A DNA stretch of 64,000 nucleotides, taken from assembly GCA_041749475.1 (NCBI GenBank), contig JBGTBD010000040.1:511-64510 (forward strand), read 5' to 3'. Source of the DNA: Rickettsiales bacterium. GTDB lineage: Bacteria; Pseudomonadota; Alphaproteobacteria; Rickettsiales; UBA998. Below, piece after piece: positions 35,884 to 51,914 of the stretch. The translations under genes were made by a program, and so were the position numbers. The first letter of the stretch is position 1, and each line of letters begins with the position of its first letter. Below the pieces are notes generated by a model. That model saw only the letters and a program-made list of their open reading frames with translations, was not told the origin of the DNA and ran no database searches.

Positions 35884-37659
35884 TCAGCCAATAAAACGGC
35901 TTGGCCGCAGCAGGGTTGCAACCGATCGAGGCAGCGGTAGCGGGTCGCCGCACAGCTGCGAAGCCAGTAATTCTGCCGCGATGGGGGCAGAAACCAACCC
36001 CCGCGATCCATGCGCCGCATTCAACCACACCAAACCATTGGAAGGCCAATTTCCTGAGAGTGGGAGCCGATCCCGGCTGGTACTGCGCAGCGCCGCCCAC
36101 CCGTCACACGCCGCATCGGGGGGGATGGGGATAGCCAGTGCTACGGACGCTTTGGCGATGTTCTCCGCATGGCTCGCCGGATCCACCGTCACATCCTGCC
36201 GACCCCGGTCGAACGTTGCCCCGATATGGTACAGACCATCAATGGGAGGGGTAATATATGTGTTGGAGGAGAGGATGGTATTCAACCCGTGCAACGCAGG
36301 CTGGGGAGGGATGCAGGAAATCTGACCGCGAATGATGGTGAGGACGGGCACAAGCTCCGGCAGAAGCGCACCAAGCCCCACTGAGGTGCAGAGGATTGTC
36401 GGCATGTCAACTTCCCGCACTGACTCCAGCGTGTCTCCCAGCTTAAGCGTAATCGCCGGATGCGCCAGCAGATGGGTGGAAACATCCTCCAAGTTCGCCC
36501 AGCCGCTATGGGGGAACCATAGCGCATCGCTGTGGCAGGGAATGCCTGCGATGCGCGTCGCCTCGTCTTTATCCACCCAGCGTAGCCAGTCTGGCGGCAG
36601 CGGCGTGGTCTCCGCCAGTCGGCGCAACCGCTCCGGCGCTTCGTGCGGTTTGGCGAAAAGCAACATGCCACATGCCGACCTCGCCACCGCATCCCCGCAA
36701 GTATCAAGCAGCGCGCGACTATGCGCATACCCATGCGCATAGAATTGTGCCTGCGCGGGGTAGCCGACCGCGAAGCGTGGGAACAGAATCGCCGATGGAT
36801 TGTGCGACGCGCCGCTGGCGGGCTTTTTTGCCGCGTCCTGTACGGTGACGCGCACACCGCGTAATGCCAACGCATGCGCCGTTGCCGCACCTGCCAATCC
36901 CGCGCCGATGATGGTAGCCTCACGAATGGGTGAATGCACGCGGGCCGCGCCATCAAGCCGCCCCGCGAGCATATATTTTTTCTTACCGAAGCCAGAGCGT
37001 TTCTCCAGCGTGAATCCGGCTGAGCCGAGCGCCTCCATTGTCATCGTCGCGGTAGAGAAGGTGGCGAACGTTGCATCCGGCGCAGAGAGGCGATGTAGTT
37101 CGTGCGTCAGTTCCGCCTGCCACAATTCCGGGTTCAGCCGTGGCGCAAACCCGTCGAGGAACCACGCATCGACCACCGCATCCTGATCGCGGAACATCTC
37201 CAGCGCGTCGCCCTGCATCAACGTCAGCTGAATCCTCCCGCCCGCGAAATGGCGACGGTGATAGCCGGGTATGAGCGGTGGCAGGGAGGCCTGTAATGCT
37301 TTCGCATACAGAGCCAGTTCCGGGAATAATCCATGCGCCCGCTGCATATCGGGAAGGGCCAGCGGATGTTTTTCCACCGACAGGAAGTTTAACCGCGCCT
37401 GCGCCGGAGCGGTTTCCAGAAACAATTTCCACACGCTCAGGAAATTCAGCCCCGTGCCGAACCCTGTCTCGCCGATGGTGAATACATCGCGCCCCAGCCA
37501 GCGTTCCGGCAATCCGTTCCCGTCAAGGAACACATGCCGAGTCTCCGCGAGTCCGCCTTCGCGCGAAAAATACACATCCCCATGCGTCGCGGAGACGGGA
37601 TTGCCACGCTCATCCCAATCAAGGACGGCAGGGGAGAGGGGGAGGATGGACGGTGGCAT
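35884..37659 (-). CDS. mnmC: Bifunctional tRNA mnm5s2U34 methyltransferase/FAD oxidoreductase MnmC
   Basis: DVYFS, ETGFGTGLNF, WFLDGFAP, GFGKK, IIGAGLAG, AHGSRGL; alternative start at 37701. Confidence 0.93.
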   Translation of the reverse strand: MPPSILPLSPAVLDWDERGNPVSATHGDVYFSREGGLAETRHVFLDGNGLPERWLGRDVFTIGETGFGTGLNFLSVWKLFLETAPAQARLNFLSVEKHPLALPDMQRAHGLFPELALYAKALQASLPPLIPGYHRRHFAGGRIQLTLMQGDALEMFRDQDAVVDAWFLDGFAPRLNPELWQAELTHELHRLSAPDATFATFSTATMTMEALGSAGFTLEKRSGFGKKKYMLAGRLDGAARVHSPIREATIIGAGLAGAATAHALALRGVRVTVQDAAKKPASGASHNPSAILFPRFAVGYPAQAQFYAHGYAHSRALLDTCGDAVARSACGMLLFAKPHEAPERLRRLAETTPLPPDWLRWVDKDEATRIAGIPCHSDALWFPHSGWANLEDVSTHLLAHPAITLKLGDTLESVREVDMPTILCTSVGLGALLPELVPVLTIIRGQISCIPPQPALHGLNTILSSNTYITPPIDGLYHIGATFDRGRQDVTVDPASHAENIAKASVALAIPIPPDAACDGWAALRSTSRDRLPLSGNWPSNGLVWLNAAHGSRGLVSAPIAAELLASQLCGDPLPLPRSVATLLRPSRFIG

Positions 37660-37776
37660 AGGATGGTTATACAGGGCCACACCGCCATGCGCCAAGGGCA
37701 TTTCATAAAAGTTTCACACGCGTTTAGGCGGTGGGTTGGGTAAGGTGAGGCCCACCACTGCACATCCGGGGAAACT

Positions 37777-39210
37777 ATGCAGATCTACCGCCGCTACCCT
37801 GACGAGAAGGGCAACACTGATATTTCCGAACTCGTCGACCCCAAAAGCCTGCGCAAGGAATCCCCGCAGGCGATGGATCTTTCACGTCCGACGCTGTTCT
37901 TCTTCCCCGGCTTCCAGACCATGGACGACAGCATCCCACTCCACCCCGTCACCAAGAAACCGCTAAACAACCAAGATTCGTATACCTCGCTGAACCTGAA
38001 ATCCAGCGTGGTCGAATCCCACCTGGGCAATGCGGCTGACCTTTATCGGCAAGGGAAGGTGAATTTCTACACGCTCACCTACTCACCCACCCGAATAATT
38101 CCAAAACGTATCAAGAACCTGCTTGTCGATGCCTACAATGTGCTGGCTCCCGACGTCATCAAAATCAGGCGCACCACCCCGCGCAGCGGTAAACTGTTCG
38201 ATGCAGCCAGCTTTATGTTTTTTCCTGAGGTTTATTATCGGGAGGACGCTGAGCATTTTGTCGATCAGATGATCCTTCCCGCCATCATGCGCGCGAATGG
38301 TAGTTTTCTGCCTAAAGATGAAATCATGGAGAAATTCCGTAACGTTACCTTTGCTGCGGACTCCTACGGCAGCACTTTCGCACACCAGATCGGGAACTAC
38401 CTTAAATTCTGTCTTACCAAAAACAAGAAGCACCCGAAAGGTTTCCCTGCCGAGGAGGTAAAGGAAATGTTGCAGCAGTTTGTCTTCATCGGGGGTTCCA
38501 ATATCGTCATCAATGACAAGCCGGGTCAGAAAAACCCTTTCACGGGGATTTATTTCGAGGGTAGGGGAGATCAATTCATCGCCATGGCGCGCAGACTGGA
38601 GAATATGCGCTCCCTCATCCTCCCCCACCTCCTCAGCGGCAAACGCTTCCCTGAAACCATCAATCACGAGGAGGAATATAATGGCATGAGCAAGCTTTCC
38701 GACAGCGGATATTACGAGATGGCAAATGAGCAGATTCATGTCATCGAAGCGGCCGAGCGGCACTACAAACCTACGCCCGATAAGGATAACACGACGTTTC
38801 GCCCTGTGGATAAAGGCATGGTGGTGGAATTTGACGTGCCCACCCGCTTCCACGTCTTGCTCAAGGATCACGGCAAACCGCTCGCCCGTTTCTATCCTAA
38901 CGTACCGGAACTCCACCAATCCTACAGCTATTACTACCCCATCCCCGAACACCGCGACCACGCCGACCTCTATGGCCGAGCCTTACGCAACGCCGTCACC
39001 CGCTCCCCCAAGGAAGAAGTCACCGCCCAAGACCTCCTCACCCGCGACGTCCTCCCCCACAAACCCAAAAACGGCAACGACGAGTCACGCACCGACTTCA
39101 CCTCCGGCATCAACCAAGCCCGCATGAAGGCGCATCTGGATGAGGTGGTGGCGAAGCAATTGGCGGAGGTGAGGGGAGAGAAGGTTGGGATGGAAGGTCG
39201 CAATTTTTGA
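37777..39210 (+). CDS. Hypothetical protein, possible divergent alpha/beta hydrolase
   Basis: PTLFFFPGF, ADSYG elbow, EGRGD and a downstream His. Confidence 0.6.
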   Translation: MQIYRRYPDEKGNTDISELVDPKSLRKESPQAMDLSRPTLFFFPGFQTMDDSIPLHPVTKKPLNNQDSYTSLNLKSSVVESHLGNAADLYRQGKVNFYTLTYSPTRIIPKRIKNLLVDAYNVLAPDVIKIRRTTPRSGKLFDAASFMFFPEVYYREDAEHFVDQMILPAIMRANGSFLPKDEIMEKFRNVTFAADSYGSTFAHQIGNYLKFCLTKNKKHPKGFPAEEVKEMLQQFVFIGGSNIVINDKPGQKNPFTGIYFEGRGDQFIAMARRLENMRSLILPHLLSGKRFPETINHEEEYNGMSKLSDSGYYEMANEQIHVIEAAERHYKPTPDKDNTTFRPVDKGMVVEFDVPTRFHVLLKDHGKPLARFYPNVPELHQSYSYYYPIPEHRDHADLYGRALRNAVTRSPKEEVTAQDLLTRDVLPHKPKNGNDESRTDFTSGINQARMKAHLDEVVAKQLAEVRGEKVGMEGRNF

Positions 39211-39237: not shown

Positions 39238-40557
39238 CTAAAAAATTATTTTTACTAAAATAGAGTTCTCTTCGGAATTCACTGAAATGGCGGCGCCATG
39301 CTGTTTGGCAATCCAGTTGACGATGGCTAGTCCAAGACCGGAGCCGTCACCATCATGGTTGACCCGGTAAAATGGATCGAACACCCGTTTTGCTTGTTCG
39401 GATGTCAGCGCCACCCCTGTATTATGCACCGATAATTCCACGCCGCCTTCCTGCTTCAGCGTAATGCGCACGGTGGCTCCCGGAGGGCTATGACGGAAGG
39501 CATTATCCAACAGGTTGCGCAGGAGAATTTCCAGCATGCTGGCATTGCCCTTGACGTGGATATTGTCCTGAATTTCAGCAATAAGCGTGTGTTGCCGCTT
39601 TCTGGCAAGCGGTTCCGCTTCATCTGCCATGCACCGTGCAAGGATCGATAAATCCACATCATCCAATTCCTGCTCAAGCTTCTGAACGCGCACCAGCGTC
39701 AGCAATTGTTCTACCAGACGCGCCATGCGGTCAATGCCGGGAAGCACGTCCTGGAATAATTGCTGCTGCTCCACCGCGTTGTTGCTGCGCAATGCCACCT
39801 GCACCTGCGTCTTGAGCGCAGCTAGAGGCGTGCGCAACTCATGCGCCGCATAGCCGGTAAAGCGCTTTTCGCGGTCGATGACTTCTTCGATACGCTGCAT
39901 CAGGCGGTTCAGCGCACCGACGAGCGATGTCACTTCGCTGGGAAGGGTTTCGGTGGGAATGGGCTGCAACGCCTCCGGTTGCTGGGATTGGATTTGCGCA
40001 GAAAGACGGTCAAGGGGTGCGATGCCGTACCGTACGCCGAACCAGATGACGCAAACGAGTAACGGGAAAACAAGCAAGGAGGGCAAGAGGACGCTCACTC
40101 CGACCTTTTCGATCAAATCCATCCGGGCGTGATAATCCTCCGCTACTTCCACGATCACATTTTGTTCGCGCAGGATGAATATCCGCCACATGCGATCATT
40201 CATCATGCGGTCGGTAAACCCTGTGGACTGGGTGAGGGGGCCAAGTGATGTCGCGTTATCCGACTGCATTAGTACATCTTTCCCGAGCCAGACGCGGTAG
40301 GCGAAATCCTTTTCATACGGCGTATTGAACTTGCCATCATGCAAATCAATCAGCTTTTCCGTGACGTCCCCTTCCTCGATTTCATGCTGGGAAAGCAAGC
40401 CGAGAACGCGGGCAAAATGCGCGAGCTGGGCATCGTAGATTTCTTCCGCTTCGTGCCGCGCGCTGAGATAGGAGGCGATGGCAATGCTCGCCACCCCCAG
40501 CAACAGCGGGATGGCTAAAACCCGAAGCAGCCGGAAACGTAGTGAACTGCTTCTCAT
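39238..40557 (-). CDS. QseC/PmrB-like sensor histidine kinase
   Basis: HEAEEIYDAQL periplasmic motif, HAMP, AAHELRTPL, NLLDNA, GSGLGL. Confidence 0.92.
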   Translation of the reverse strand: MRSSSLRFRLLRVLAIPLLLGVASIAIASYLSARHEAEEIYDAQLAHFARVLGLLSQHEIEEGDVTEKLIDLHDGKFNTPYEKDFAYRVWLGKDVLMQSDNATSLGPLTQSTGFTDRMMNDRMWRIFILREQNVIVEVAEDYHARMDLIEKVGVSVLLPSLLVFPLLVCVIWFGVRYGIAPLDRLSAQIQSQQPEALQPIPTETLPSEVTSLVGALNRLMQRIEEVIDREKRFTGYAAHELRTPLAALKTQVQVALRSNNAVEQQQLFQDVLPGIDRMARLVEQLLTLVRVQKLEQELDDVDLSILARCMADEAEPLARKRQHTLIAEIQDNIHVKGNASMLEILLRNLLDNAFRHSPPGATVRITLKQEGGVELSVHNTGVALTSEQAKRVFDPFYRVNHDGDGSGLGLAIVNWIAKQHGAAISVNSEENSILVKIIF

Positions 40558-41210
40558 GTAGCCTCCATGATGTAACCCAGGTTACGTACCGTGCGAATGA
40601 TTTCCTTGCCTAGCTTGCGGCGCAGCGAGGAAACATGCACTTCTACCGTGTTACTGCCGATGGCGTACTCCCAGCTATAGAGATTCTGTTCAATCCTTTC
40701 CTTACTGATATGTTGACCAGCATTTTCGAGGAGCAGACGAAGTATCTCAAATTCTTTTTGCGACAGGGTAAGCAGGTTGTTTCCACGCGAAACGGTTTTG
40801 GTAAGAGTATTGATCGTGATGTCGCGCCAGTACAGGATGGTGGGCGTCAATTCGGGCTTCCGGCGGGAGAGAGCCCGGATGCGCGCCAGCAATTCTTCGA
40901 AATCAAAGGGTTTAACCAGATAATCGTCCGCTCCCGTATCCAGCCCTTGCACCCGTTCCGCCGTGGTATCGCGGGCGGTGAGTAACAATACCGGAACTTG
41001 GTTTTTCTTGCGCCGCAGCTGGGCGAGCCATTCCAGCCCCGACTGGCCGGGAAGGTTGATGTCGAGCACGATCACGTCATAAGACGTGACGTACAGCGCA
41101 TCCTGCCCTTCCTCGGCGGTGCGGAACCAGTCGGCTGCATAATCCTGTTTCAAGCCTTGATGAATGGCCTTGCCCAGTTGCTTATCATCTTCAATCAGCA
41201 GAATTCGCAT
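40554..41210 (-). CDS. QseB/PmrA-like OmpR-family response regulator
   Basis: MRILLIEDD, LTARD, GADDYLVKPF, SNTVEVHVSSLRRKLG...TVRNLGY. Confidence 0.93.
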   Translation of the reverse strand: MRILLIEDDKQLGKAIHQGLKQDYAADWFRTAEEGQDALYVTSYDVIVLDINLPGQSGLEWLAQLRRKKNQVPVLLLTARDTTAERVQGLDTGADDYLVKPFDFEELLARIRALSRRKPELTPTILYWRDITINTLTKTVSRGNNLLTLSQKEFEILRLLLENAGQHISKERIEQNLYSWEYAIGSNTVEVHVSSLRRKLGKEIIRTVRNLGYIMEAT

Positions 41211-41211
41211 C

Positions 41212-41982
41212 TTAGTGTTTTATCTGATGGGACTCGGTTTGTGTATTATAAGTGGTATAGATGATTAACACAATGAGGACTGATAGCAATGTAGCGGAAG
41301 AGCCTGCCGTACCTAAATCAAGGCCCCCTTTCTCGATGGGTTTGGTGAGTACGTCGCCCATTGTGGCGCCAAAGGGACGAGTTAATACGAACGCACTCCA
41401 GAATAGCAAGAGACGTGAGATGGTTGTGAAATAATAAAGCGCTACAATGAATCCAATGACGCTTCCTATCAGTAATGCCCCTCCTGCGAAGCCTAAACCG
41501 GAATCATCCGCAAGATAGTCTCCCAAAGCCGTTCCGAGCGTGTTGGAAAAAAGGATGGCAATCCAATAGAAAATTTCCGCTTTCGTCGTTTGGATGGATG
41601 TTACCGACAAGGATCCTATACTGATACGCCACCCTGTAAGGGTTAAAAGCAGCAGACTGAGAAGGATCAGCGAGCCGATTGCATAACCCAATCCCAAGGT
41701 GCGATCCATGTAGTCGGAAACAGTGGTGCCAGCCGTGCTGGTGGCGAGAATAACGCCCCAATACAGAAACGGGTGATGACGCTTGGCGGAAAGTTGCACG
41801 GCCAATGCAACGGCAAACACACCGAGGAGGGCAAGTGAACTTATGGCATAACCGATATCAAGGGTCATGGAAAACAGATCACCCGCAGTTTCACCGAGGG
41901 TGGTGGCACTGATTTTCATCAGCCAGAAAGCCAGCGTTATTTCCGGCAGCTTTCTCACGCTGATCGCCTTCGTAAGTTGCAT
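41212..41982 (-). CDS. COG4705/DUF347 family membrane protein
   Basis: KLPEITLAFW.MKI.ATTLGETAGD, NTLGTALGD, FVLTRPFGA..GD.LTKP. Confidence 0.88.
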   Translation of the reverse strand: MQLTKAISVRKLPEITLAFWLMKISATTLGETAGDLFSMTLDIGYAISSLALLGVFAVALAVQLSAKRHHPFLYWGVILATSTAGTTVSDYMDRTLGLGYAIGSLILLSLLLLTLTGWRISIGSLSVTSIQTTKAEIFYWIAILFSNTLGTALGDYLADDSGLGFAGGALLIGSVIGFIVALYYFTTISRLLLFWSAFVLTRPFGATMGDVLTKPIEKGGLDLGTAGSSATLLSVLIVLIIYTTYNTQTESHQIKH

Positions 41983-41985
41983 GGC

Positions 41986-42729
41986 TTACCCCTGAACCTT
42001 GCTTTTAGCTTTGGCGATGGCGTGCTGGATTTCTGCGCGGCGTCCGGCATCGGCATCTTCGCGACCGGGACGGGCTGGTGCCTGCAACGCGTGTTCTAGC
42101 ACGGGAATGGCTTCCGCATACTTGCCTTGCTCGATCAGGTAATCACCATAGAAATAGTTTGGGTCGATACCGTCCGGGTTAAGCGCGCGTGCCTGTTCCA
42201 GATAGGCGAGAGCCTTGTCGTTATCCCCAAATCCCATTGGCCAGCCGGGAACTTTGTAATAGAGCGAGCCGAGCGAGGTATAGACGGAACCGTCCAGCGC
42301 TTTGGGATTAAGTTTTTCCGCCTGTTCCAGCAATACTTTAGCGTCTTTTGCAAGCCCGAGAGCGCCCAGCCCGCCATTAATGCCGGCTTGCGTGCTCAGG
42401 ATAATCGCCTGCCAGATCTTGGCTTCCGCATAGGCAGGGAATTTCTTGCTTACGCCTTCGGCTTTGACGGCAAGCGCTTCCATTTGTTTTTCCTGCGCGT
42501 CCTGATTCTTGAGCACATATTTAATGCGCGCCCATTCATGCTGTAGTTCCCGCAGCGATGCGTCCAACTCGGCATTATCGGTGATAGCAGGTAGTGGATT
42601 GACCGCCGATGCTGGCGGCTGCGCCATGCCGACGGGCGCTTGTAGCATATGCGAGGGATTTGTTTCTTGGGCGAATGCGCTGGTCGATACAAGCAAGGAA
42701 GCGACAAATAAGTGAAATGCGGTGTTCAT
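41986..42729 (-). CDS. Exported tetratricopeptide-repeat protein
   Basis: Signal peptide (AFA), TPR-like helices, SLGSLYYKVPGWP, NPDGIDPNYFYG. Confidence 0.85.
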   Translation of the reverse strand: MNTAFHLFVASLLVSTSAFAQETNPSHMLQAPVGMAQPPASAVNPLPAITDNAELDASLRELQHEWARIKYVLKNQDAQEKQMEALAVKAEGVSKKFPAYAEAKIWQAIILSTQAGINGGLGALGLAKDAKVLLEQAEKLNPKALDGSVYTSLGSLYYKVPGWPMGFGDNDKALAYLEQARALNPDGIDPNYFYGDYLIEQGKYAEAIPVLEHALQAPARPGREDADAGRRAEIQHAIAKAKSKVQG

Positions 42730-42748
42730 AATAATCTCCATGATTTGG

Positions 42749-43321
42749 TTAAAGGTGAAAGGTTTCAAGAAATTCAAAAATGGGCAGCGGGAGGAACCAC
42801 CAGATAGCGTCACGCACGCTGGAAAGTAGGCGATCCGGGCTCATGGGGACGTAATCCGGTGATTTGTAGAGGCGGAAATCCGGGATTACCCGCGGTGTCG
42901 TGTTTTCATAAATTGTATAATTCTTGCCGAATTTTCCTCGCAGAAATTTCTCCTCACGGCGAATAAGCAAATAATAGATGATTCCGATAAAAAGCGGCGC
43001 GATGATCATGATGGCAGGGCGCATGCTTGCTAGGCTGATACCCAATACCCCAAGCCAGGAAAAAATATAAAGCGGGTTCCGGACCATGGAGAAAGGACCG
43101 TAAGTAATCAGTTCTGTGTTTTTATGGCCCCCCAGAAAAGCTGTGGTGTAAACCCTACCTAGCGCGCAGGTGGTAATCAGTAGATAGCCGATGAAATCAA
43201 GCGCCTCGTGTTTGTAAGAGCTGCTATTAGCCAGACTATGTGTGAAAATGAATAACGCGACGCATAATAAAGCGATAAGCCTTGAATCGCGAATACGGCT
43301 TTTGTTTAATGCTGTGGCCAT
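42749..43321 (-). CDS. ICMT/PEMT family membrane methyltransferase
   Basis: LITYGPFSMVRNPLY, REEKFL..KFG..Y..Y...TPR. Confidence 0.88.
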   Translation of the reverse strand: MATALNKSRIRDSRLIALLCVALFIFTHSLANSSSYKHEALDFIGYLLITTCALGRVYTTAFLGGHKNTELITYGPFSMVRNPLYIFSWLGVLGISLASMRPAIMIIAPLFIGIIYYLLIRREEKFLRGKFGKNYTIYENTTPRVIPDFRLYKSPDYVPMSPDRLLSSVRDAIWWFLPLPIFEFLETFHL

Positions 43322-43334
43322 GGATAGTTCCTCC

Positions 43335-43871
43335 TTAGATAACTCGTTGCCAGATAGGGTTTCGGTCGATCAATGCATGCTTCAGCGCACCCACGACATG
43401 CAAAGCAATCAGGGCCAGTAACAAGAAGGCGAACGGCTCATGCCAGTGACGCGCAAGTTTTGCGAGTTCGGGGATCAAAGGGGTGAGCGGTGGGATATGC
43501 AGCCCAAAGAATGGCACCGACTTTCCTGCCAAGGCCTTCATCCCGTATCCCGATCCGGCCATCAGTAACATGCCCCCGTAGAGTCCGAGATGAACTATTT
43601 TGGCAAGAAGCGTTTCCAAACCGGGTTTGGTGGGTAGCGCCGGTTGTGCTTCCGTGAAGCGGAACCAGAGCCGGACGGGCAATAGCAACCCCACCAGAAG
43701 CCCTAATGACTGGTGCAGTTCCCAAGCGGGCTTTCGCCATTCCTTGGGAAAGTCATTGACGTAAAAACCAATGATCAGGGCTCCTGCGATGCCGATCGCC
43801 ATTACCCAATGCAGCAGGCGAATCGCGCTGGAATAGCGTTCTGGCGCTAAAGTTAAAATTTCCGATATCAT
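43335..43871 (-). CDS. Cytochrome b561 family di-heme membrane protein
   Basis: RYS...LLHW, HQSLG, H..LY, WHE, LHVVGALKH. Confidence 0.9.
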   Translation of the reverse strand: MISEILTLAPERYSSAIRLLHWVMAIGIAGALIIGFYVNDFPKEWRKPAWELHQSLGLLVGLLLPVRLWFRFTEAQPALPTKPGLETLLAKIVHLGLYGGMLLMAGSGYGMKALAGKSVPFFGLHIPPLTPLIPELAKLARHWHEPFAFLLLALIALHVVGALKHALIDRNPIWQRVI

Positions 43872-43874
43872 AAA

Positions 43875-44633
43875 TTACGTCTTGAAGAGGGTTGCGGCAA
43901 GTTGATCATTCTTTCGAAGCGCGTTATCGACAACACGCGGCAACAGGGCGTTGACCCGCACGAAGAAACGTTCCGGAAACCCGATAAAAACGTCCTTCTC
44001 CTTCTGCTTGATCGCTTGCAGAATGCGGCCTGCCACGTGTTCGGGGGTGTCCATGTTCATCTTTGTCAGTTCGGCGAATGTAAGGACCTTCTCGTTATTC
44101 AGCTTTGTCTTTACCGCGCGCGGGGAAATATGGGTTATGTCAACTCCGCACCCCGCCACCTCCCGCCGCAATGCCTGACTGAACGCTCCCATCCCCGCTT
44201 TCGAACTGGAATAAGTCACAAAATGCGCGAAAGGGATGGAGCCGAAGGTGGAGCCGATATTGACGATATGCCCGCTTCCCCGCTTTTTCATGTGGGGCAG
44301 GACGGCTTGCGTCAGCAGGACTGGTGCAAGCAAATTGATGGTATAAGTGAGCGCGACATGCTCGGGCGATTGCTGCTCAAGCGGCCCGAAATACTGGATT
44401 CCGGCGAGGTTGATCAGCATATCGACCGACTCGGAAGCCAGCTTTTGCGCGAGAGCGGTGATGCCCTCCATATTTCCCAGATTATCTTGAAGCAGCCGGG
44501 CATCGAAATCGAGCGAATCCACCCGGTCGATGACGGTAACATCCGCCCCTTCCGCAATCAGTGATCTGCACAACAAACTGCCGATGCCCCCGGCGCCTCC
44601 GGTTACGACGATATGAGCTTCCTTAAGCGGCAT
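43875..44633 (-). CDS. SDR family oxidoreductase
   Basis: VTGGAGGIG, NLAG, GSTFGSI, YSSSK. Confidence 0.92.
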   Translation of the reverse strand: MPLKEAHIVVTGGAGGIGSLLCRSLIAEGADVTVIDRVDSLDFDARLLQDNLGNMEGITALAQKLASESVDMLINLAGIQYFGPLEQQSPEHVALTYTINLLAPVLLTQAVLPHMKKRGSGHIVNIGSTFGSIPFAHFVTYSSSKAGMGAFSQALRREVAGCGVDITHISPRAVKTKLNNEKVLTFAELTKMNMDTPEHVAGRILQAIKQKEKDVFIGFPERFFVRVNALLPRVVDNALRKNDQLAATLFKT

Positions 44634-45294
44634 GGCGGGCCTCGCTTTCAAAGGGCAGGCTGCGGAAGATATTGGCGTAAAGCACGAACATGCGCTTAGC
44701 CATATGAAGAATGGCCGCTTGATCTTCCTCGTTAGTAATCTGGTTCATCAGCTTCTCGAAAAACTGCATATGCGAAATATCGAGTGACCCATGCGAGGTC
44801 AGGTAGGAAAAGCACTGTTTTGGCAAATTGAGCGATGTGGCAATGGTTTCTGCCGCTTTTGTTGCTATCGTGGTACTGGTGCCTTCCAGCACAAACACCA
44901 TGCCGAAGAAGGAAACCGGATTACCGCGGCTGACGCTGTCATAGGCGTAAGCGACCATCATTTCGGTTGCCATGTTTGGCTGGCCGTGGCGAATCTGTTC
45001 TTTGTCCTCGCCGCAATGGGCGATGTCGTTCAATATCCATTCCTGATGGCCGACTTCCTCTGCGATATATTCGGCAACGGCATTGCGCAGCCACTCCTTC
45101 TCCTGCGGCAGGCGGGAGCCGGTAAGCATCAATAACGGCGTCGTATGTTTGACGTGATGATAGGCCTGTTCGAGGAAGGCGACGTAGGCGGCTTTGTTGA
45201 TGATGCCTTCCAGCGCCGAGCGGATAATAGGCACATCGTAAAGCGCACTCCGCTCAACCTCCGTTTCCTGTTGCAGGCGTTCAAAGAAATGCAT
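44623..45294 (-). CDS. Heme-oxygenase-like (TenA/CADD-type) iron-containing redox enzyme
   Basis: EEVGH, LEGTS and SHGSLDISH diiron-type ligand pattern. Confidence 0.85.
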   Translation of the reverse strand: MHFFERLQQETEVERSALYDVPIIRSALEGIINKAAYVAFLEQAYHHVKHTTPLLMLTGSRLPQEKEWLRNAVAEYIAEEVGHQEWILNDIAHCGEDKEQIRHGQPNMATEMMVAYAYDSVSRGNPVSFFGMVFVLEGTSTTIATKAAETIATSLNLPKQCFSYLTSHGSLDISHMQFFEKLMNQITNEEDQAAILHMAKRMFVLYANIFRSLPFESEARHAA

Positions 45295-46723
45295 GATGGG
45301 CTTCCTTTCCATGGAAATTCTCAGAAGTGAATAGGTTGTAATAAGCGAGTATCTCAGAGCGTTTGAGGCGCCCATTAGGGGTAAGAAAACCGTCGGCGGC
45401 CGTGAAAGCAGGAACCTTCTGCCATTGCTGAATACACGCATATTCGGGTAGACGGGCATTGACCTGATCCACTGCGTACGTGATATCGGCATTGAAGGAT
45501 GCGGGAACTATAAAAGCGCTTAAATGCTCCGCTGCTTCCCCAAACACAAGCACCTGCGCAATTTCCGGCTGAGCAAGGAGTTCGCTTTCCGGCCATTCGG
45601 GTGAGATGTTGCGCCCATTAGCGAGGATGATGACATTGCGTTTGCGGCCTTGAATGGTGAGATAACCGTCGCCATCGAGACTGACGATATCGCCGGTGGT
45701 ATACTCGCCTTGCTGCGCGGACTCGCCCACATAACCTAGCCAAGCAAGATTCTTCAGGATGAGTTCCCCATCTTCCGCGATGCGGTAACGTACATGCGGC
45801 AGGATTTTGCCTGCGCTTGCGGGTTTGTTGTTCGACGGTGTATTGACGGCGACCACGGAAGCCGCTTCACTGAGGCCGTATCCCTGATAAAACGGCAATT
45901 CGAGTGTTTCAGCTTTTTCCAGCAGGCCGGAGTGAACCCGCGCGCCGCCCACCGCCATGAACTTCATTTGCGGTAAGGCGACCGGCATTTTTTGTTGGGC
46001 TTGTAATAAAGCAGCGGCGTATTCAGGAACGAGGATGCAGCTGGTGATATTTTCAGCGGCCATGTGTTGCAATAATTCAGCCCCGTTCGGTTGTAGCCCT
46101 GTGAATCCGAGCCGGACGAGCGGCTCAACTACATATGTCCCGCCCGCAAGCAGTGTCGCGTAAAGTCCACCGATATTCTCCAGCAACACGGAAAGAGGCA
46201 GGACGGCCAAATGACGCGCTGCGTTCTCTTTTTCAATGACTTTGATAAGGGATTCCGCCACCTGTTCCATACCGGGTTGGGAGAGGCAAACACCCTTGGG
46301 CGTACCGGTCGTGCCGGAAGTAAATGTGATTTTTGTTGTTCCTTCCGGCAATGGAACGGGGGAATAGTCAAGACGCGTGAATTGCCATTGCGCAGTGTTG
46401 GTCAGAATCAGGTTTGCGCCAGCGGATGCTAGAGCATGCTCACGCTGTGCGGCGGAAAAGAAGGGAGGCAGGGGTATGGACGGAATCTCTGCCATCACCA
46501 GCGCGAGATCAGCGATACACCAGGCAATACCGTTTTCTATCTCCAGTCCTACGCAATGCGGGCGTTTTTCTACTAACTGCGCAGCCAGTTCATTGACCGC
46601 CTGAAGCAAGTCGAAATAGGTGATATCCTTGCCGCCGCTGCGTAGGGCAACTCGCAACATATCGGTTGCGGCATGATGGGCAAGGGCAGTGAGTACCTGG
46701 CTTTTGTGGGCGCTAGGGGACAT
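45281..46723 (-). CDS. AMP-binding (acyl-CoA ligase-like) enzyme
   Basis: TFTSGTTGTPKG, GYGLSE, TGD, GRKRN, TPNGRLKR. Confidence 0.92.
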   Translation of the reverse strand: MSPSAHKSQVLTALAHHAATDMLRVALRSGGKDITYFDLLQAVNELAAQLVEKRPHCVGLEIENGIAWCIADLALVMAEIPSIPLPPFFSAAQREHALASAGANLILTNTAQWQFTRLDYSPVPLPEGTTKITFTSGTTGTPKGVCLSQPGMEQVAESLIKVIEKENAARHLAVLPLSVLLENIGGLYATLLAGGTYVVEPLVRLGFTGLQPNGAELLQHMAAENITSCILVPEYAAALLQAQQKMPVALPQMKFMAVGGARVHSGLLEKAETLELPFYQGYGLSEAASVVAVNTPSNNKPASAGKILPHVRYRIAEDGELILKNLAWLGYVGESAQQGEYTTGDIVSLDGDGYLTIQGRKRNVIILANGRNISPEWPESELLAQPEIAQVLVFGEAAEHLSAFIVPASFNADITYAVDQVNARLPEYACIQQWQKVPAFTAADGFLTPNGRLKRSEILAYYNLFTSENFHGKEAHHAFL

Positions 46724-47443
46724 TTATGCGTTTACAGGTTTGGGATGGATACGGGTGTGGTAACCGTCGGTTTCACCGGAGAAGCTGAGATGTAGGTGGC
46801 GTTTCAGGCGATTATAGGTATCGGGCATGTTGCCGGTGATGATGCGCGGATTGGCGCTATAATAACTCCCCCAGCTTGCTCCACCATCCGGCAATAAAGA
46901 TTGATCCGCCGGGCCGAGGACGGCTGGCTTCAGACCAAGCTGCAGGAAGTAGCGGTGCAGGAAGTCGGTCGCGGTGACGGCAATGCTATTGAACCCGTGC
47001 TGCAAAAGATAAGCATGCATGGCGGTGAATAGGAAAATGGATGCCCCGTTGCCGAGGGAGGCGAGACTGCCCGCTTCGACGAAACTTTGTCTTGCCTTCA
47101 ATTCGCCGGTAACACGAAAATGCGCCTCTTCGATGCTCTCGTGCAAATATTGCTCTAGGAACAACGGCTCCTCTTTAGCGTAGCGGAAGCCCAGTGCGCC
47201 GAGGATGGTGTCGTCTTTATCCCGCACGCTCATCAGGACTGGGTAATGCTCAGTGATGTGGGCCCCATAGGATTCCCGAAATTTGGCTTCGATGAATTTT
47301 TCCACGCGACGCCGCTCGGGCGAGAAGAGGCCTGCGATGGAAATGACGGTAGGCAAGAGTTTGGTGTAATGTTTCAGGCGTTGCTCGTTGAAGTCCAACG
47401 CCTGCTCGTAGCCTTCATCGTTCTTGAGAATGATATGCAACAT
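46724..47443 (-). CDS. 'Thermostable hemolysin' (delta-VPH-like) family protein
   Basis: FI...F...YGA, GFRYA...LFLEQYL, VEAGSLAS, WGSYY...P; alternative GTG start at 47467. Confidence 0.85.
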   Translation of the reverse strand: MLHIILKNDEGYEQALDFNEQRLKHYTKLLPTVISIAGLFSPERRRVEKFIEAKFRESYGAHITEHYPVLMSVRDKDDTILGALGFRYAKEEPLFLEQYLHESIEEAHFRVTGELKARQSFVEAGSLASLGNGASIFLFTAMHAYLLQHGFNSIAVTATDFLHRYFLQLGLKPAVLGPADQSLLPDGGASWGSYYSANPRIITGNMPDTYNRLKRHLHLSFSGETDGYHTRIHPKPVNA

Positions 47444-47501
47444 AGGTGCTTTCAAAATCCACTTCACGTTATTGAATTATTCGCTATGGTAGCGGCGTTT
47501 A

Positions 47502-47518
47502 CTGAAGTGAACCTGAAG
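47502..47518 (-). promoter_or_regulatory. Putative QseB/PmrA-type direct-repeat operator
   Basis: Minus strand CTTCAG-GTTCA-CTTCAG, 10 nt before TACCAT. Confidence 0.65.
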
Positions 47519-47537
47519 CCCGAAAGCACTCAAAAAA

Positions 47538-48296
47538 ATGACTGTCAAAGTGAAAGCATTACTGGCCAGCGTGCTGCTGGCTTCCACCGTATCGATACCC
47601 GCAATGGCGGTCGATAAGCTCTATGCACCTTATGTTGATAAAGGGGAGTGGGAGGTTGAGTATTTCGGCAGCAACAGCTTCGATAATGACGATACGAAAG
47701 ATACGGCGCAGAAGCATGAATTTTCGGTTGGATATGGCGTTACCGAGTATTGGAAAACCGAGTTTTATACCATTTTTGAGAAAGAACCGCAGGATCATAT
47801 AACCTTCGATGCGCTGGAATGGGAAAACGTCTTCCAATTCACCGAGCGCGGCGAATACTGGCTCGATGCGGGCGGTTCGCTGGCCTATGAATGGACGCCG
47901 GAGGACAACCACCCCGATGCGATTGAGGCCCGCCTGCTGCTGGCGAAAAGCACCGAAAACTTCACTCATATCCTAAATCTGATTGCGGAAAAGGAAGTGG
48001 GCTCCGGCGACCGGGAAGATCTGGAAGGCGGCTTCATCTGGAGCAGCCGCTATCTCTATTCGCCGCTGTTCCAGCCAGGATTCGAGATCAGCAGCGATTT
48101 CGGGGAATTGGAAGAAACCGGCTCTTTTGATGAGCAGGAACATTATATTGGCCCTGTGGCCTATGGTATGATACCGCTGGAGGCCGATGAGCCGGATGAG
48201 GGGCTGCAATATCGCGTAGGATATCTCGTCGGCGTTTCCGATGAAGCCGCCGATGGCCAGCTACTTATCGAACTGGAATATGAGCTTGAATTCTAG
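47538..48296 (+). CDS. Acidic outer-membrane beta-barrel-like protein
   Basis: Signal peptide (AMA), alternating strands, C-terminal LEYELEF beta-signal. Confidence 0.75.
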   Translation: MTVKVKALLASVLLASTVSIPAMAVDKLYAPYVDKGEWEVEYFGSNSFDNDDTKDTAQKHEFSVGYGVTEYWKTEFYTIFEKEPQDHITFDALEWENVFQFTERGEYWLDAGGSLAYEWTPEDNHPDAIEARLLLAKSTENFTHILNLIAEKEVGSGDREDLEGGFIWSSRYLYSPLFQPGFEISSDFGELEETGSFDEQEHYIGPVAYGMIPLEADEPDEGLQYRVGYLVGVSDEAADGQLLIELEYELEF

Positions 48297-48657
48297 ATTT
48301 TTCCTCGTTTTTGCCGGGATCAGTGGTTTTATCGCTGTATTGATGGGAGCGGCGGCGACGCATTGGCTTGCCGCCAGTTTAGCGCCTGAAGATATTTCGC
48401 GTATCGAAAAGGCCGCGACATACCAGATGTATCATACGCTGGCGCTGCTCGGGCTGGGCGTATGGATGCACCTTGAACCCCAGTGCCGCTTAAAGCTTCC
48501 CGCGAGCCTGTTTGCCGTGGGTATCCTGTTATTTTGCGGTAGTCTATACGCCTATAGCGTTCTTCATTTGCAACCGCTTGTTTATGTGACTCCGTTAGGC
48601 GGCACGGCGATGATGGCAGGTTGGCTATCATTGGCAGTGGCTGCATTTAAACGCTAA
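48280..48657 (+). CDS. DUF423 family membrane protein
   Basis: GAAATH, A.YQMYH, LFCGSLY, TPLGG..MMAGW. Confidence 0.9.
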   Translation: MSLNSRFFLVFAGISGFIAVLMGAAATHWLAASLAPEDISRIEKAATYQMYHTLALLGLGVWMHLEPQCRLKLPASLFAVGILLFCGSLYAYSVLHLQPLVYVTPLGGTAMMAGWLSLAVAAFKR

Positions 48658-48674
48658 CTTCAGGTTCGCTTCAG
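48658..48674 (+). promoter_or_regulatory. Putative QseB/PmrA-type direct-repeat operator
   Basis: CTTCAG-GTTCG-CTTCAG, 10 nt before TACTCC and 36 nt before the cmoA ATG. Confidence 0.65.
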
Positions 48675-48710
48675 CTTTTGGCATTACTCCTTTACAACAG
48701 AGGGGTTCCT

Positions 48711-49466
48711 ATGGCGATGGTACAGATTAAATCCGAAGAAGAGAAAACCGACCGGGTCTTCGAAACACAGGCGAAGGTCGGCGATTTTGCGTTCGATGCA
48801 AAAGTGGCGTCGGTATTCGATGACATGGTCAGCCGATCGGTGCCGTTCTATCACGAAATGCAACGCATGATCGTGGAACTGGCTCAGGAATTCGCCACCG
48901 ACGGCAGCCGGATTTACGATATTGGCTGTTCGACGGGAACGACTATCCAGCTGCTCGATAGCTATCTCGCAAACAAGCAGGTGGAGTTCGTCGGAATCGA
49001 TAATTCCAAGGAAATGCTTAAAGAAGCAAAACGCAAATCCGACGAGATGGGACTTACCCACGAATACCATTTCAAGTGCCAGGACATCCATAAACAGCTA
49101 AGCATGCAGAATGCGAGCGTGGTAACACTTATCCTCACCCTCCAATTTGCAAGGCCGCTTTACCGGGAGAAAATCATGCGCCGGATTTTCGAGGGGCTTA
49201 ATCCTAATGGCTGCCTGTTGATGGTCGAGAAAATCACGTCAGAAGATACGCTGTTCAACCGCTTGTTCATCGAGCGCTATTATGATTACAAGCGGCGCAA
49301 CGGCTATACCGAAACGGAGATTTCCAAGAAGCGTGAAGCACTGGAGAATGTGTTGATACCCTATCGCCTGGAAGAGAATGAAACCCTGCTCAAGATGGCC
49401 GGTTTCCGGCATGTTGAAGTATTCTTCCGCTGGTATAATTTCTGCGGCATCCTAGCGGTGAAATAG
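48711..49466 (+). CDS. cmoA: Carboxy-S-adenosyl-L-methionine synthase CmoA-like
   Basis: DFAFDAKVASVFDDMVSRSVPFY, YDIGCSTG, DNS..M, LQF, KRRNGY..EI..KR.ALEN. Confidence 0.9.
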   Translation: MAMVQIKSEEEKTDRVFETQAKVGDFAFDAKVASVFDDMVSRSVPFYHEMQRMIVELAQEFATDGSRIYDIGCSTGTTIQLLDSYLANKQVEFVGIDNSKEMLKEAKRKSDEMGLTHEYHFKCQDIHKQLSMQNASVVTLILTLQFARPLYREKIMRRIFEGLNPNGCLLMVEKITSEDTLFNRLFIERYYDYKRRNGYTETEISKKREALENVLIPYRLEENETLLKMAGFRHVEVFFRWYNFCGILAVK

Positions 49467-49467
49467 G

Positions 49468-50208
49468 ATGGCAATGCAAGAGACAAAATCTGCGTTGGTC
49501 AGAGCTGGAGATTTCTTTTTCAAATACCGCAACCTGCTTTTCCCCGTGGTGATGGGGATCGTGTTTTTTACCTACGCCCCACCTTATGAATATTTTTCCA
49601 GCGAATGGGCTGAAGAGAGCAAAGATATTGTAGCCGGTCTCGTTATTATGAGCGGGTTGATGGTACGCGGCGCGGTAATTGGTTTCGCGTATATCAAGCG
49701 TGGCGGGTTGAATAAGAGAGTCTATGCTGAGCATCTGGTGACGGAGGGGTTCTTTGGCGTTTGCCGCAACCCGCTCTATGTCGGTAACATGCTTATCTAC
49801 ACGGGCGTTTTCCTGATGCACGGTAATCCATATGTGTTCATTTTAGGAACGCTAATCATGTTCGGCATTTATACATGCATTATCGCTGCGGAAGAGCATT
49901 TTCTGCGCATGACGTTCGGTACGGCCTATGACGAATATTGTCGTGATGTGCCGCGCTGGATACCGCGTGTGAGTAAATTCGGTGAGGCAACCGCAGGCAT
50001 GCGTTTCAATCTGAAGCGGGTATTGTTGAAAGATTACAGCACTATTGCTAATGCCGGAATCACGATAGCGACTTTGGAACTGCTGGAGCAATGGCACGAA
50101 AAACCCTTTTCGTTGAGCGACACCCCTCTCGGTGGAGCGGTTGCCATTCTACTGCTGTTGGGTGGTGCGCTTTTCATTTCCGCCATGAAGCGGAAAAAAG
50201 TTTTCTAA
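49468..50208 (+). CDS. ICMT-family membrane methyltransferase (LmtA-like)
   Basis: GDFFFKYRNLLFP, LVTEG.F..CRNPLYVGN, EEHFL...FG..Y..Y...VPRW. Confidence 0.88.
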   Translation: MAMQETKSALVRAGDFFFKYRNLLFPVVMGIVFFTYAPPYEYFSSEWAEESKDIVAGLVIMSGLMVRGAVIGFAYIKRGGLNKRVYAEHLVTEGFFGVCRNPLYVGNMLIYTGVFLMHGNPYVFILGTLIMFGIYTCIIAAEEHFLRMTFGTAYDEYCRDVPRWIPRVSKFGEATAGMRFNLKRVLLKDYSTIANAGITIATLELLEQWHEKPFSLSDTPLGGAVAILLLLGGALFISAMKRKKVF

Positions 50209-50276: not shown

Positions 50277-50351
<75 letters not shown>

Positions 50352-51023: not shown

Positions 51024-51800
51024 ATGGATATTTCGATGATTGCAAAAGGCGGGTTCGTCATGGTCCCGCTGATCCTGCTGTCGATCTATGCGCTGGCGGT
51101 GATTTTCTATAAGATTTTCCAGTTCACGGTAGCGGGTGTGTTCAACCACCGCTTCATCGACCCCATCATGGTCTATGTGAAGAAGGGCGAACTCTCGACG
51201 GCGGAGGAGTTGTTGAAGAAAGAACAGGGCCCGATCGCCCGTATCATGCAGGTCTCCATCTCCTGCATCACCAACCGGCTGATGTCGCAGAGGAGCCGCG
51301 AAGCGGAGATCACGCGCATCGGCTCGTCGGAACTGTACGCGCTTGAATCGCACATGCGCGGTCTTGAACTCGTCTCCTCCACCGGCCCGCTGCTGGGCTT
51401 ACTGGGAACCGTGACCGGGATGGTCGTGATGTTCGCGACCATCGGGAAAGCGGGCAGCCACGTGGACCCCGCCATGCTCGCCAACGGTATCTGGGAAGCG
51501 CTGATCACCACCGTCACCGGCCTCATCGTCGCCGTGCCTGCGGTCTTCGCCTATTACATCATCGACGGCGTGATTGAGCGCGTGCGCCTGACCATGAAGG
51601 ACGTGACGGTGCAGATTCTCGCGCTGGAAGACGAATATATGCGCAACGAAAAAGAGCAGGAAAAGCGAGAGGTTATGGAACAGGAACGCAAAATCCGCGA
51701 GCAGCAGGAAGAGGAAGACCGCGTCGCCCGCCAGTTCCGCTCTACGGCGCAGACCTCTTCAACGCTTCGCCTGCTCAACCCCAGCTATACGCAAATGTGA
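51024..51800 (+). CDS. exbB: MotA/TolQ/ExbB proton channel
   Basis: GG..M.PL, PLLGLLGTVTGM, GIWEALITT..GL.VAVPA. Confidence 0.9.
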   Translation: MDISMIAKGGFVMVPLILLSIYALAVIFYKIFQFTVAGVFNHRFIDPIMVYVKKGELSTAEELLKKEQGPIARIMQVSISCITNRLMSQRSREAEITRIGSSELYALESHMRGLELVSSTGPLLGLLGTVTGMVVMFATIGKAGSHVDPAMLANGIWEALITTVTGLIVAVPAVFAYYIIDGVIERVRLTMKDVTVQILALEDEYMRNEKEQEKREVMEQERKIREQQEEEDRVARQFRSTAQTSSTLRLLNPSYTQM

Positions 51801-51828
51801 TGCTGTGGGGCGTCGTACATTCTCATCA

Positions 51829-51898
51829 TGTCGCCCCGTCGCATGACGGGGTCTGGCTTCTCCTTCAACCCGGATGCCGTCATGAAGACGGCATGACA
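51829..51898. repeat. Palindromic doublet element, copy 1 of 3
   Basis: TGTCGCCCCGTCGCATGACGGGGTCTGG...CCGGATGCCGTCATGAAGACGGCATGACA. Confidence 0.88.
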
Positions 51899-51914
51899 AA
51901 AAGGGGTTAAAAAT

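Follow-up and report, generated by a model that had tools for sequence, protein, structure and literature searches.

A predicted PmrAB-type regulon joining a T_hemolysin-family biosynthetic cassette and a cmoA-membrane transferase pair in a Rickettsiales bacterium

The locus described here lies at positions 39,238 to 50,208 of a 64,000-nucleotide stretch of DNA from a Rickettsiales bacterium (the window: positions 511 to 64,510 of the forward strand of contig JBGTBD010000040.1, assembly GCA_041749475.1). A minus-strand operon carries a biosynthetic cassette that begins with a T_hemolysin-family gene, and the operon ends with a response regulator and a sensor kinase; a divergent plus-strand arm carries cmoA, encoding carboxy-S-adenosylmethionine (Cx-SAM) synthase, and the gene of a membrane transferase, here called PEMT2 (Table 1). 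With a confidence only a little better than even, the locus is read as a PmrAB/BasRS-type, probably metal-sensing envelope-stress regulon that would drive both the cassette operon and cmoA-PEMT2. The comparative support for this regulon architecture is strong; the signal, both products, the lipid target and the binding of the regulator are what we infer. The new element is one conserved operator that is predicted to serve both modules in one genome. Also new are a quantitative correlation between this operator box and the regulator, and a direct comparison with the eptA promoter and the BasS kinase of E. coli.

The initial annotation had pointed to an operator-like repeat common to both arms, and a pattern search recovers it as an exact CTGAAG-N5-CTGAAG that occurs twice in the window. 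These are the only two exact copies of the 17-nt direct repeat in the whole genome of 2,191,885 bases, where 0.26 would be expected by chance. When one mismatch is allowed, the genome yields 10 matches versus 9 for a reversed-pattern control, and the eight non-exact matches are thus at control level. Both exact copies are intergenic and both read CTTCAG-N5-CTTCAG toward the downstream gene: box 1 lies in the divergent intergenic region and faces the T_hemolysin operon, and box 2 lies between the DUF423 stop codon and cmoA. The two boxes are 1.1 kb apart and identical at 16 of 17 positions, spacer included, and their flanks are unlike.

The comparison with other genomes used an even set of 401 genomes of the same class (the class sample) and a relatives set of 41 genomes that includes the window genome. 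Cassette loci were 16 cut from the class sample and 80 named loci from a homologue alignment, two sets that may overlap; they were compared by tblastn with the 14 window proteins, and loci with at least 8 kb downstream were taken as full-length (n = 57). A regulator-kinase pair orthologous to that of the window (47-64% and 33-46% identity, respectively) follows the gene of a periplasmic TPR protein in 31 of the 80 named loci, and a box with at most one mismatch is found upstream of T_hemolysin in all 31, being exact in 27. Among the full-length loci, box and pair occur together in 25 and are both missing from 32, with no discordant case. Seven further boxes lack a visible pair, and their contigs end too early to show one; in the box-less loci the best match has 3-5 mismatches. 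The record titles of the boxed, regulator-bearing loci name Alpha- and Gammaproteobacteria, Pseudobdellovibrionaceae and a delta proteobacterium. Because box and pair coincide in related loci across several phyla, CTTCAG-N5-CTTCAG is predicted to be the cis-element of the regulator-kinase pair, of which it would be a footprint across these phyla. The autoregulation that the initial annotation had proposed is likewise predicted, the box being kept in every related locus that has the pair, and the operon containing the pair is very probably autoregulated.

The predicted element is close in form to the PmrA box. The eptA promoter of E. coli K-12 carries CTTAAGGTTGGCTTAAT (CTTAAG-GTTGG-CTTAAT) 49 nt before the ATG, and the boxes of two cassette loci (L125 and L126) read CTTCAGGTTGGCTTCAG. 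The geometry is equal, with a 5-nt spacer, and one base differs per half-site. From the box to the first long open reading frame (ORF; the first start codon giving at least 60 aa) the median distance is 46 nt over 33 boxes.

The regulator-kinase pair had been likened to PmrA/PmrB, with two periplasmic ExxE motifs noted in the kinase, and both points hold up. Over its full length the regulator shares 43% identity with E. coli BasR, and PmrA is its best NCBIfam model. The translation of the kinase places HEAEE at residues 35-39 and HEIEE at residues 58-62, after the first membrane helix and between two hydrophobic segments (topology judged by eye). Just behind its first membrane helix E. coli BasS carries H35-E36-S-T-E39 and E61-I-R-E64, and the window kinase has H35-E36-A-E-E39 and E59-I-E-E62, the first motif standing at identical positions. 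All 35 cassette-linked kinases have E36 and E39, while 29 keep H35, 28 keep H58 and 32 keep E59; more distant 2CSK_N kinases beside divergent cassettes are without the motif.

The cassette itself (module A) comprises a T_hemolysin-family acyltransferase, an AMP-forming ligase, an HO-like diiron oxidase (HDO), a short-chain dehydrogenase/reductase (SDR) and the periplasmic TPR protein, and it is kept across Proteobacteria and beyond. PF12261, the Pfam family of the first gene, was detected in 17 of the 401 class-sample genomes and in one of 40 close relatives. Named loci come from records titled Caulobacter, Phenylobacterium, Brevundimonas, Micavibrio, Kordiimonas, Granulosicoccaceae and Sulfuriflexus, and further ones from Nitrospiraceae, Pseudobdellovibrionaceae, Alcanivorax, Pseudohongiella, Thiothrix and others; Pseudohongiella nitratireducens SCS-49 is one of the records, and a Sulfuriflexus mobilis protein was also found. 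Ligase, HDO and SDR follow T_hemolysin in every one of the named loci long enough to show them (72/72), and the TPR protein comes next wherever the sequence reaches that far (69/69); all four enzymes were detected in 11 of the 16 class-sample loci. A literature search found no paper on the cassette.

The T_hemolysin protein is predicted to be an acyltransferase resembling N-acyl amino acid synthases and LuxI. An AlphaFold2 model built from 32 homologues (pLDDT 89.8, pTM 0.84) gave as its best Foldseek match FeeM (2g0b), an N-acyl amino acid synthase, at E 3.8e-6. The next matches are the acyl-homoserine lactone (AHL) synthases MesI (6wns), LasI (1ro5), TofI (3p2h), RpaI (6wn0) and BjaI, followed by other GNAT enzymes; a PDB sequence search found no solved relative of the protein. 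Its conserved residues include R95, E105, R126 and E131, counted in the 247-residue ORF. The resemblance to FeeM/LuxI-type synthases extends over top matches with E from 3.8e-6 to about 1e-3 and target-normalised TM scores of 0.48-0.69, and the adjacent acid-activating ligase could supply the acyl donor. On the other hand, sequence identity to these enzymes is 11-15%, the T_hemolysin protein has extra N- and C-terminal elements, and it is always coupled to HDO, SDR and the periplasmic TPR protein. The initial annotation had proposed an acylated metabolite or lipid as the product; the hemolysin-like protein does have a predicted acyltransferase fold, and the product itself is still a proposal.

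Among the remaining cassette proteins, the ligase finds its top NCBIfam matches in long-chain fatty-acid-CoA ligase and MenE, both below cut-off, and the TPR protein has a weak match (45 bits) to the sterol-transport protein BstC. Across 75 HDO sequences the residues E146-xx-H149, E203 and H234-xxx-D238-xx-H241 are near-invariant, each kept in at least 95%. We take these residues to be the six dimetal ligands (three His and three carboxylates), their spacing fitting the CADD/UndA pattern. The nearest solved structure is 3dde, of unknown function. Six key residues are shared in the HDO superfamily (PMC13232832). The Acinetobacter HDO DtpC was considered as a cassette member and rejected, being a different, katE-linked protein (PMC13232832).

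The plus arm carries the second module (module B). CmoA scores above the equivalog cut-off and is single-copy in the genome. Its usual reaction partner CmoB, whose carboxylate-binding residue is Lys91, was searched for with TIGR00452: the best match in the window genome reaches 29.6 bits versus a cut-off of 275. Searches of all 401 class genomes and of all 41 in the relatives set gave no CmoB, while the E. coli control came up positive, and 12 class genomes checked one by one lacked it too. CmoA above cut-off occurs in 13 of the 401 class genomes, the very 13 that have a PEMT2 orthologue, and in nine of the 41 in the relatives set, again the very nine with a PEMT2 orthologue (at least 44% identity). 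Moreover, cmoA stands directly upstream of PEMT2 on the same strand in 8/8 relatives' and 12/12 class loci, which with the window genome makes 21 of 21 genomes. PEMT2 is the obligate partner of cmoA, and the two form an independent, strictly coupled module. As a separate observation, the bifunctional tRNA enzyme MnmC is encoded at 35884-37701 (minus strand) and scores above its equivalog cut-off, and wobble-modification genes are thus present though CmoB was not found.

Some examples of known Cx-SAM users are CmoB, TglF and MccB, as given in the available part of PMC10491745, and the phage DNA enzyme CmoX, as given in that of PMC12783734. The arrangement of a bona fide CmoA directly upstream of a dedicated transferase is shared with the pairs CmoA/CmoB, TglE/TglF, MccS/MccB and phage CmoA/CmoX. 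The partner here differs from all of these in being a polytopic PEMT/ICMT-family membrane enzyme, a fold that was not found reported as a Cx-SAM user; a full-text literature search turned up no publication that connects Cx-SAM with a PEMT/ICMT-type membrane enzyme, and none was found on the cmoA-PEMT2 pair. PEMT2 aligns over residues 10-210 to the model (TIGR04571) of LmtA, the lipid A 1-phosphate O-methyltransferase of Leptospira, and the PEMT proteins have weak PDB sequence matches to ICMT (4a2n and 5v7p). PEMT2 and LmtA are membrane enzymes of the same superfamily, and PEMT2 sits in a type of regulon that elsewhere modifies lipid A phosphates; the predicted donor of PEMT2, in contrast, is Cx-SAM and not SAM. 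The initial annotation had suggested alkylation of an envelope lipid. What survives of this is a plausible role for the plus-arm pair in carboxymethylating a membrane substrate, the alkylated lipid being a conjecture.

A regulatory link of the same kind is seen in a relative. In genome G014 (locus L081, 9441-14015) a PmrA-type box, TATAAG-TTTCG-TTTAAG, is followed, after 45 nt, by cmoA, PEMT2, a regulator, a kinase and a PEMT1-like gene in one apparent operon; the regulator is 45% identical to BasR and has PmrA as its best model. This reads as the box-eptA-basR-basS layout of E. coli with cmoA-PEMT2 replacing eptA, and as an independent echo of the link predicted in the window. Sister regulons of the cassette type place other envelope modifiers under the box. 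Genome G075 has the exact box four times, versus none for the control pattern, and three clustered copies precede T_hemolysin, a PepSY_2-cytochrome b561 gene pair (L035, 3298-4185) and a trio of GT2, LAB_N and PMT_2 genes. In L035, L126 and L173 an exact box of its own precedes this ArnC/ArnT-like trio; in L141 and L178 the trio is part of the operon and separates the TPR gene from the regulator. The locus with the arrangement closest to that of the window, L118, has inside its operon a full-length EptA homologue (EptA_B_N and Sulfatase domains) that is 38% identical to E. coli EptA. In the window genome nothing matches EptA_B_N, and PMT_2 gives just a marginal match, which lies on another contig; only two PEMT-family genes in it score above cut-off, both in the locus. 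EptA, the ArnC/ArnT-like genes and cmoA-PEMT2 appear to fill one regulatory slot in different lineages.

A claim of the initial annotation that failed is that the two arms are one co-inherited system: cmoA and its partner were found beside the T_hemolysin cassette in none of the 80 named and none of the 16 class-sample loci. Of the 17 class-sample genomes with the cassette, three also have the other arm, where 0.55 would be expected (Fisher p = 0.014, a value that ignores relatedness). Apart from this weak genome co-occurrence, the only tie between the arms is the operator that they share in this genome, and the locus is a mosaic of separable modules rather than one ancestral unit.

According to the PmrAB-type reading, the acidic HExxE and ExxE motifs would let the kinase sense a periplasmic cue, with a metal cation, Fe(III) for instance, as the most likely one, and the kinase would phosphorylate the PmrA-like regulator, which would then bind both CTTCAG-N5-CTTCAG sites and switch on its own ten-gene operon together with cmoA-PEMT2. 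In the cassette, the AMP-forming ligase would activate a carboxylic, probably fatty, acid, the T_hemolysin acyltransferase would join the activated acid to an amine, and HDO and SDR may tailor the acylated product, an oxidatively tailored N-acyl amphiphile that the TPR protein would handle in the envelope. PEMT1, a putative SAM-dependent ICMT-type enzyme, may methyl-esterify the cassette product; together with cytochrome b561 and DUF347 it would be a local addition to the cassette operon. In the other arm, CmoA would make carboxy-SAM and PEMT2 would use it to carboxymethylate an envelope lipid, with a lipid A phosphate as the leading candidate acceptor, and the pair would hold the regulatory slot that EptA or ArnC/ArnT-like modifiers have in sister regulons.

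The features that this predicted system shares with PmrAB (BasRS) of Salmonella and E. coli are an OmpR-type regulator, a box of repeated hexamers with a 5-nt spacer some 46-49 nt before the start codon, H35-E36-x-x-E39 with a second ExxE at nearly equal positions, and an autoregulated operon that ends with regulator and kinase, EptA or ArnC/ArnT-like genes being found in the sister loci. It differs in the half-site, which is CTTCAG here and CTTAAG or CTTAAT in enteric bacteria, in the large 2CSK_N domain of its QseC-like kinase in place of a PmrB loop of about 30 residues, and in having both proteins below the NCBIfam equivalog cut-offs. Its main target would be an orphan biosynthetic cassette foreign to enteric PmrA regulons, and its local lipid modifier would be cmoA with an LmtA-like enzyme. 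A second relative is the Fe(II)-responsive BqsRS (CarRS) system of Pseudomonas aeruginosa. In the available part of PMC4358008, iron sensing requires a periplasmic xExxE motif, a role served by HExxE in PmrB and by RExxE in BqsS, and BqsR binds TTAAG-N6-TTAAG over the -35 element. A tandem-repeat operator is common to both (TTCAG-N6-TTCAG here, as predicted), as is an autoregulated operon with small periplasmic or membrane accessory genes, such as the PepSY gene that G075 has under the box; here the kinase has HExxE, as in PmrB, and the regulon content differs.

A number of observations weigh against the PmrAB-type reading. The regulator scores 223.9 bits with the PmrA model, below the cut-off of 330, and the best model of the kinase is QseC (248.9 bits, cut-off 475), with PmrB at 187 bits (cut-off 314), so that the kinase is no PmrB equivalog. 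Its periplasmic part is a 2CSK_N domain of about 120 residues, unlike the short PmrB loop, and the second ExxE motif (E62) is complete in only 22 of the 35 cassette-linked kinases. Because of the 2CSK_N domain, the QseC top model and the equivalog cut-offs not reached, the pair is filed as PmrAB-type and not as PmrAB, the regulator being a relative and not a PmrA equivalog. The cassette is not intrinsically tied to the pair, since 32 of the 57 full-length loci do without it, and cmoA-PEMT2 is near a cassette in none of the 96 other loci. A CTTCAG-type box upstream of cmoA was found in none of the eight relatives' loci examined and is seen in this genome only, and box 2 is only 36 nt from the cmoA ATG, closer than the usual 46 nt. 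A scan for the sigma-70 consensus found no promoter in either box-bearing intergenic region, which fits activator dependence but proves nothing. PEMT2 is LmtA-like only, with 88.5 bits versus a cut-off of 325 for the LmtA model. Finally, carboxymethylation of a phosphate would leave the negative charge in place, unlike the known PmrA-controlled modifications.

Other explanations were also weighed. The main one is an autoinducer circuit, in which the cassette makes a diffusible acyl signal that is sensed by the adjacent kinase, perhaps with the TPR protein, the acidic motifs being structural and the envelope genes downstream outputs. That the fold matches include the CoA-dependent AHL synthases RpaI, BjaI and MesI, and that 31 loci have synthase and sensor together in one operon predicted to be autoregulated, would suit it; yet the same 32 full-length loci keep the cassette and TPR gene without the kinase, and what tops the fold matches is an N-acyl amino acid synthase, not an AHL synthase. 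The invariance of E36 and E39 at the positions of the PmrB iron-sensing motif also argues against a circuit of this kind, and box, regulator and co-regulated EptA/ArnT-like genes point to a PmrA-type stress regulon. An autoinducer circuit is accordingly judged unlikely, if still the strongest competitor. Less likely again is that CmoA serves RNA modification through an unrecognised carboxymethyltransferase, with PEMT2 an ordinary SAM methyltransferase of a lipid or small molecule that merely shares the operon. CmoB is found in none of the 401 class genomes and 40 relatives, neither CmoA nor PEMT2 occurs without the other in them, and profile and adjacency match perfectly in the 21 genomes; CmoA with partners other than CmoB also has precedents, in TglE/F and MccS/MccB (the available part of PMC10491745) and in CmoX (that of PMC12783734). 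It does count in favour of an RNA role that the PEMT-family enzymes known so far use SAM, and that PEMT2 resembles the cmoA-independent PEMT1 in its catalytic C-terminal motifs, no Cx-SAM-specific difference between them being seen by eye.

The two arms might also be unrelated neighbours, box 2 being a chance or decaying copy and co-regulation absent. The lack of any cassette beside cmoA-PEMT2 in the 96 other loci, the eight relatives' cmoA loci without the box, and the position of box 2, which abuts the DUF423 stop codon unusually near the cmoA start, are all as this would predict. Set against them are two exact, gene-directed copies where 0.26 are expected, 1.1 kb apart and 16/17 identical within unlike flanks, the extra box copies that sister regulons put before envelope-modifying operons, and G014, which independently has cmoA-PEMT2 under a PmrA-like pair; mere neighbourhood is held to be very improbable. 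Least credible of all, with hardly any weight given to it, is the view that the product of the first gene is a real hemolysin or cytotoxin that is secreted, and that the neighbouring enzymes are unrelated to it. The Vibrio proteins delta-VPH and delta-VFH belong to the same Pfam family, PF12261, and the available part of PMC11033176 treats them as toxins, purified recombinant delta-VFH being reported as cytotoxic and lipid-binding, with the protein in the culture supernatant, which counts against a biosynthetic role as well. By eye, however, the T_hemolysin N-terminus has no signal peptide; the model has a high-confidence GNAT/LuxI-type fold with conserved active-site-like residues; and the order with ligase, HDO and SDR is fixed in 72 of 72 loci, from free-living environmental bacteria. 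Fold and enzyme neighbourhood here indicate a biosynthetic acyltransferase, as the PmrAB-type regulon reading assumes.

The gene families of the locus were assigned with Pfam and NCBIfam profile searches on the ORFs of the window, and their coordinates are collected in Table 1.

Table 1. Genes and operator boxes of the locus, in window positions, with the basis of each assignment
Feature	Position	Strand	Basis
Sensor histidine kinase, QseC/PmrB-like, periplasmic 2CSK_N	39238..40557	-	Pfam (2CSK_N, HisKA, HATPase_c), NCBIfam, translation
OmpR-family response regulator, PmrA/BasR-like	40554..41210	-	NCBIfam PmrA best model; BasR identity
DUF347 (=COG4705) polytopic membrane protein	41212..41982	-	Pfam 185 bits, 4 repeats
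Periplasmic TPR protein, signal peptide, likely start ATG 42729	41986..42729	-	Pfam TPR families, translation
PEMT1, PEMT/ICMT-family membrane methyltransferase, accessory	42749..43321	-	Pfam PEMT (PF04191) 49.6 bits, cut-off 25
Cytochrome b561 (Ni_hydr_CYTB), recurrent accessory	43335..43871	-	Pfam 106 bits
Short-chain dehydrogenase/reductase (SDR), core cassette gene	43875..44633	-	Pfam adh_short 134.8 bits
HO-like diiron oxidase (HDO), core cassette gene	44623..45294	-	Pfam Haem_oxygenas_2 116.2 bits
ANL-superfamily AMP-forming ligase, fatty-acid/MenE-like, core cassette gene	45281..46723	-	Pfam AMP-binding 146.9 bits
T_hemolysin-family protein, predicted GNAT-type acyltransferase, first operon gene	46724..47443	-	Pfam PF12261 161.7 bits
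Operator box 1 (predicted), CTTCAGGTTCACTTCAG in operon direction, 58 nt before T_hemolysin ATG	47502..47518	-	Pattern search
Secreted acidic protein, probable small outer-membrane barrel	47538..48296	+	Translation, sub-threshold OMP_b-brl
DUF423 (YgdD-like) inner-membrane protein	48280..48657	+	Pfam 75.9 bits
Operator box 2 (predicted), CTTCAGGTTCGCTTCAG, 36 nt before cmoA ATG	48658..48674	+	Pattern search
CmoA, carboxy-S-adenosylmethionine (Cx-SAM) synthase	48711..49466	+	TIGR00740 264.3 bits vs cut-off 193.3
PEMT2, LmtA-like PEMT/ICMT-family membrane transferase	49468..50208	+	Pfam PEMT (PF04191) 42.6 bits, cut-off 25; LmtA 88.5 bits

The ten minus-strand genes had been described as a tightly packed operon, and with refined starts all nine junctions overlap or have a gap of at most 19 nt. 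The gene names given earlier to both arms were also sound, all 14 being confirmed by Pfam or NCBIfam, with the outer-membrane barrel as the weakest call: it reaches 19 bits with Pfam OMP_b-brl versus a cut-off of 28.7, has a signal-peptide-like N-terminus and a C-terminal Phe, and its protein language-model neighbours are Phenol_MetA_deg-type barrels. The 239-aa start of T_hemolysin matches a database copy of the protein, and the DUF423 start overlaps the end of the barrel gene.

The accessory genes differ in how far they travel with the cassette. DUF423 belongs with the cassette and not with cmoA: of the 31 loci with the regulator, 17 have it after the kinase, against 0 of the remaining 49, and L118 shares with the window a DUF423 gene divergent from T_hemolysin. 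DUF347 and the barrel were found by tblastn in none of the 96 other cassette loci, DUF347 being a local addition and the barrel unique to this locus. Cytochrome b561 recurs with the regulator, under the box in G075 and as a tandem pair upstream of the regulator in L151 (6490-7760). PEMT1 orthologues stand between T_hemolysin and the ligase in L033, L121, L158 and L176, and beside cmoA-PEMT2 in L075, L081 and L083. PEMT1 probably uses ordinary SAM, because genome G408, which has PEMT1 inside its cassette (L033), is without CmoA. Further small proteins were seen within related operons: a membrane protein of 124-130 residues between SDR and TPR in L130, L137, L142 and L145, and one of 193-194 residues between TPR and regulator in L131, L158 and L173, accompanied in L158 and L173 by a soluble protein of 132 residues.

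On the plus side, a tRNA-Gly(GCC) gene (50277-50351, minus strand) directly follows PEMT2 and marks the end of the arm, and one terminator-like hairpin lies inside the end of PEMT2. Five DNA sequencing runs, from two studies, were found to contain parts of the window, and no RNA run with the locus was found. The summed depth of contigs from sequencing runs rises from about 3 to about 250-330 at the tRNA, as expected for a widely conserved gene; the contig pieces from runs X1-X4 are short (about 200-730 nt) and of low depth, and none of those listed spans the whole locus. Just past the tRNA is an ExbB-ExbD-ExbD-TonB cluster (51024-53642, plus strand) with no copy of the box nearby. At the other end, a 477-residue ORF (37777-39210, plus strand) that converges on the kinase gene is matched by no Pfam or NCBIfam model; the clusters nearest to it by language model are hypothetical and unnamed, with only weak lipase or alpha-beta-hydrolase leads, and an overlapping 292-residue ORF on the opposite strand has no match either. 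A 40-nt direct repeat of 78% identity, between the DUF347 gene (41548-41587) and the cmoA/PEMT2 junction (49461-49500), is probably due to chance, and the other long two-copy repeat families from a general repeat search look like chance matches.

With these results two widespread uncharacterised gene sets, the cassette and the pair of cmoA and a membrane transferase, gain a testable regulatory context. Since sister regulons put EptA/ArnT-like modifiers in the same slot, the search for the PEMT2 substrate is narrowed to envelope lipids, lipid A foremost; the predicted mass signature is +58 Da, and the suggested inducers are metal cations, acid and cationic peptides. A bolder, two-part proposal is offered tentatively, as one that we think has a good deal less than an even chance of holding in full: that cmoA-PEMT2 is the first carboxy-SAM lipid-modifying system, stress-switched and interchangeable with phosphoethanolamine or aminosugar addition, and that T_hemolysin-family proteins are misnamed acyltransferases of a widespread, stress-regulated pathway to new, oxidatively tailored N-acyl envelope lipids. 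If it were true, envelope lipids would be the fifth kind of Cx-SAM acceptor and the first lipid, beside tRNA, the thiol of a RiPP (a peptide made by the ribosome and modified afterwards), a peptidyl-nucleotide and phage DNA, and a Pfam family annotated as a toxin would be re-assigned to biosynthesis. PmrAB-like envelope remodelling would then reach well beyond enteric bacteria, with effector modules that can be swapped.

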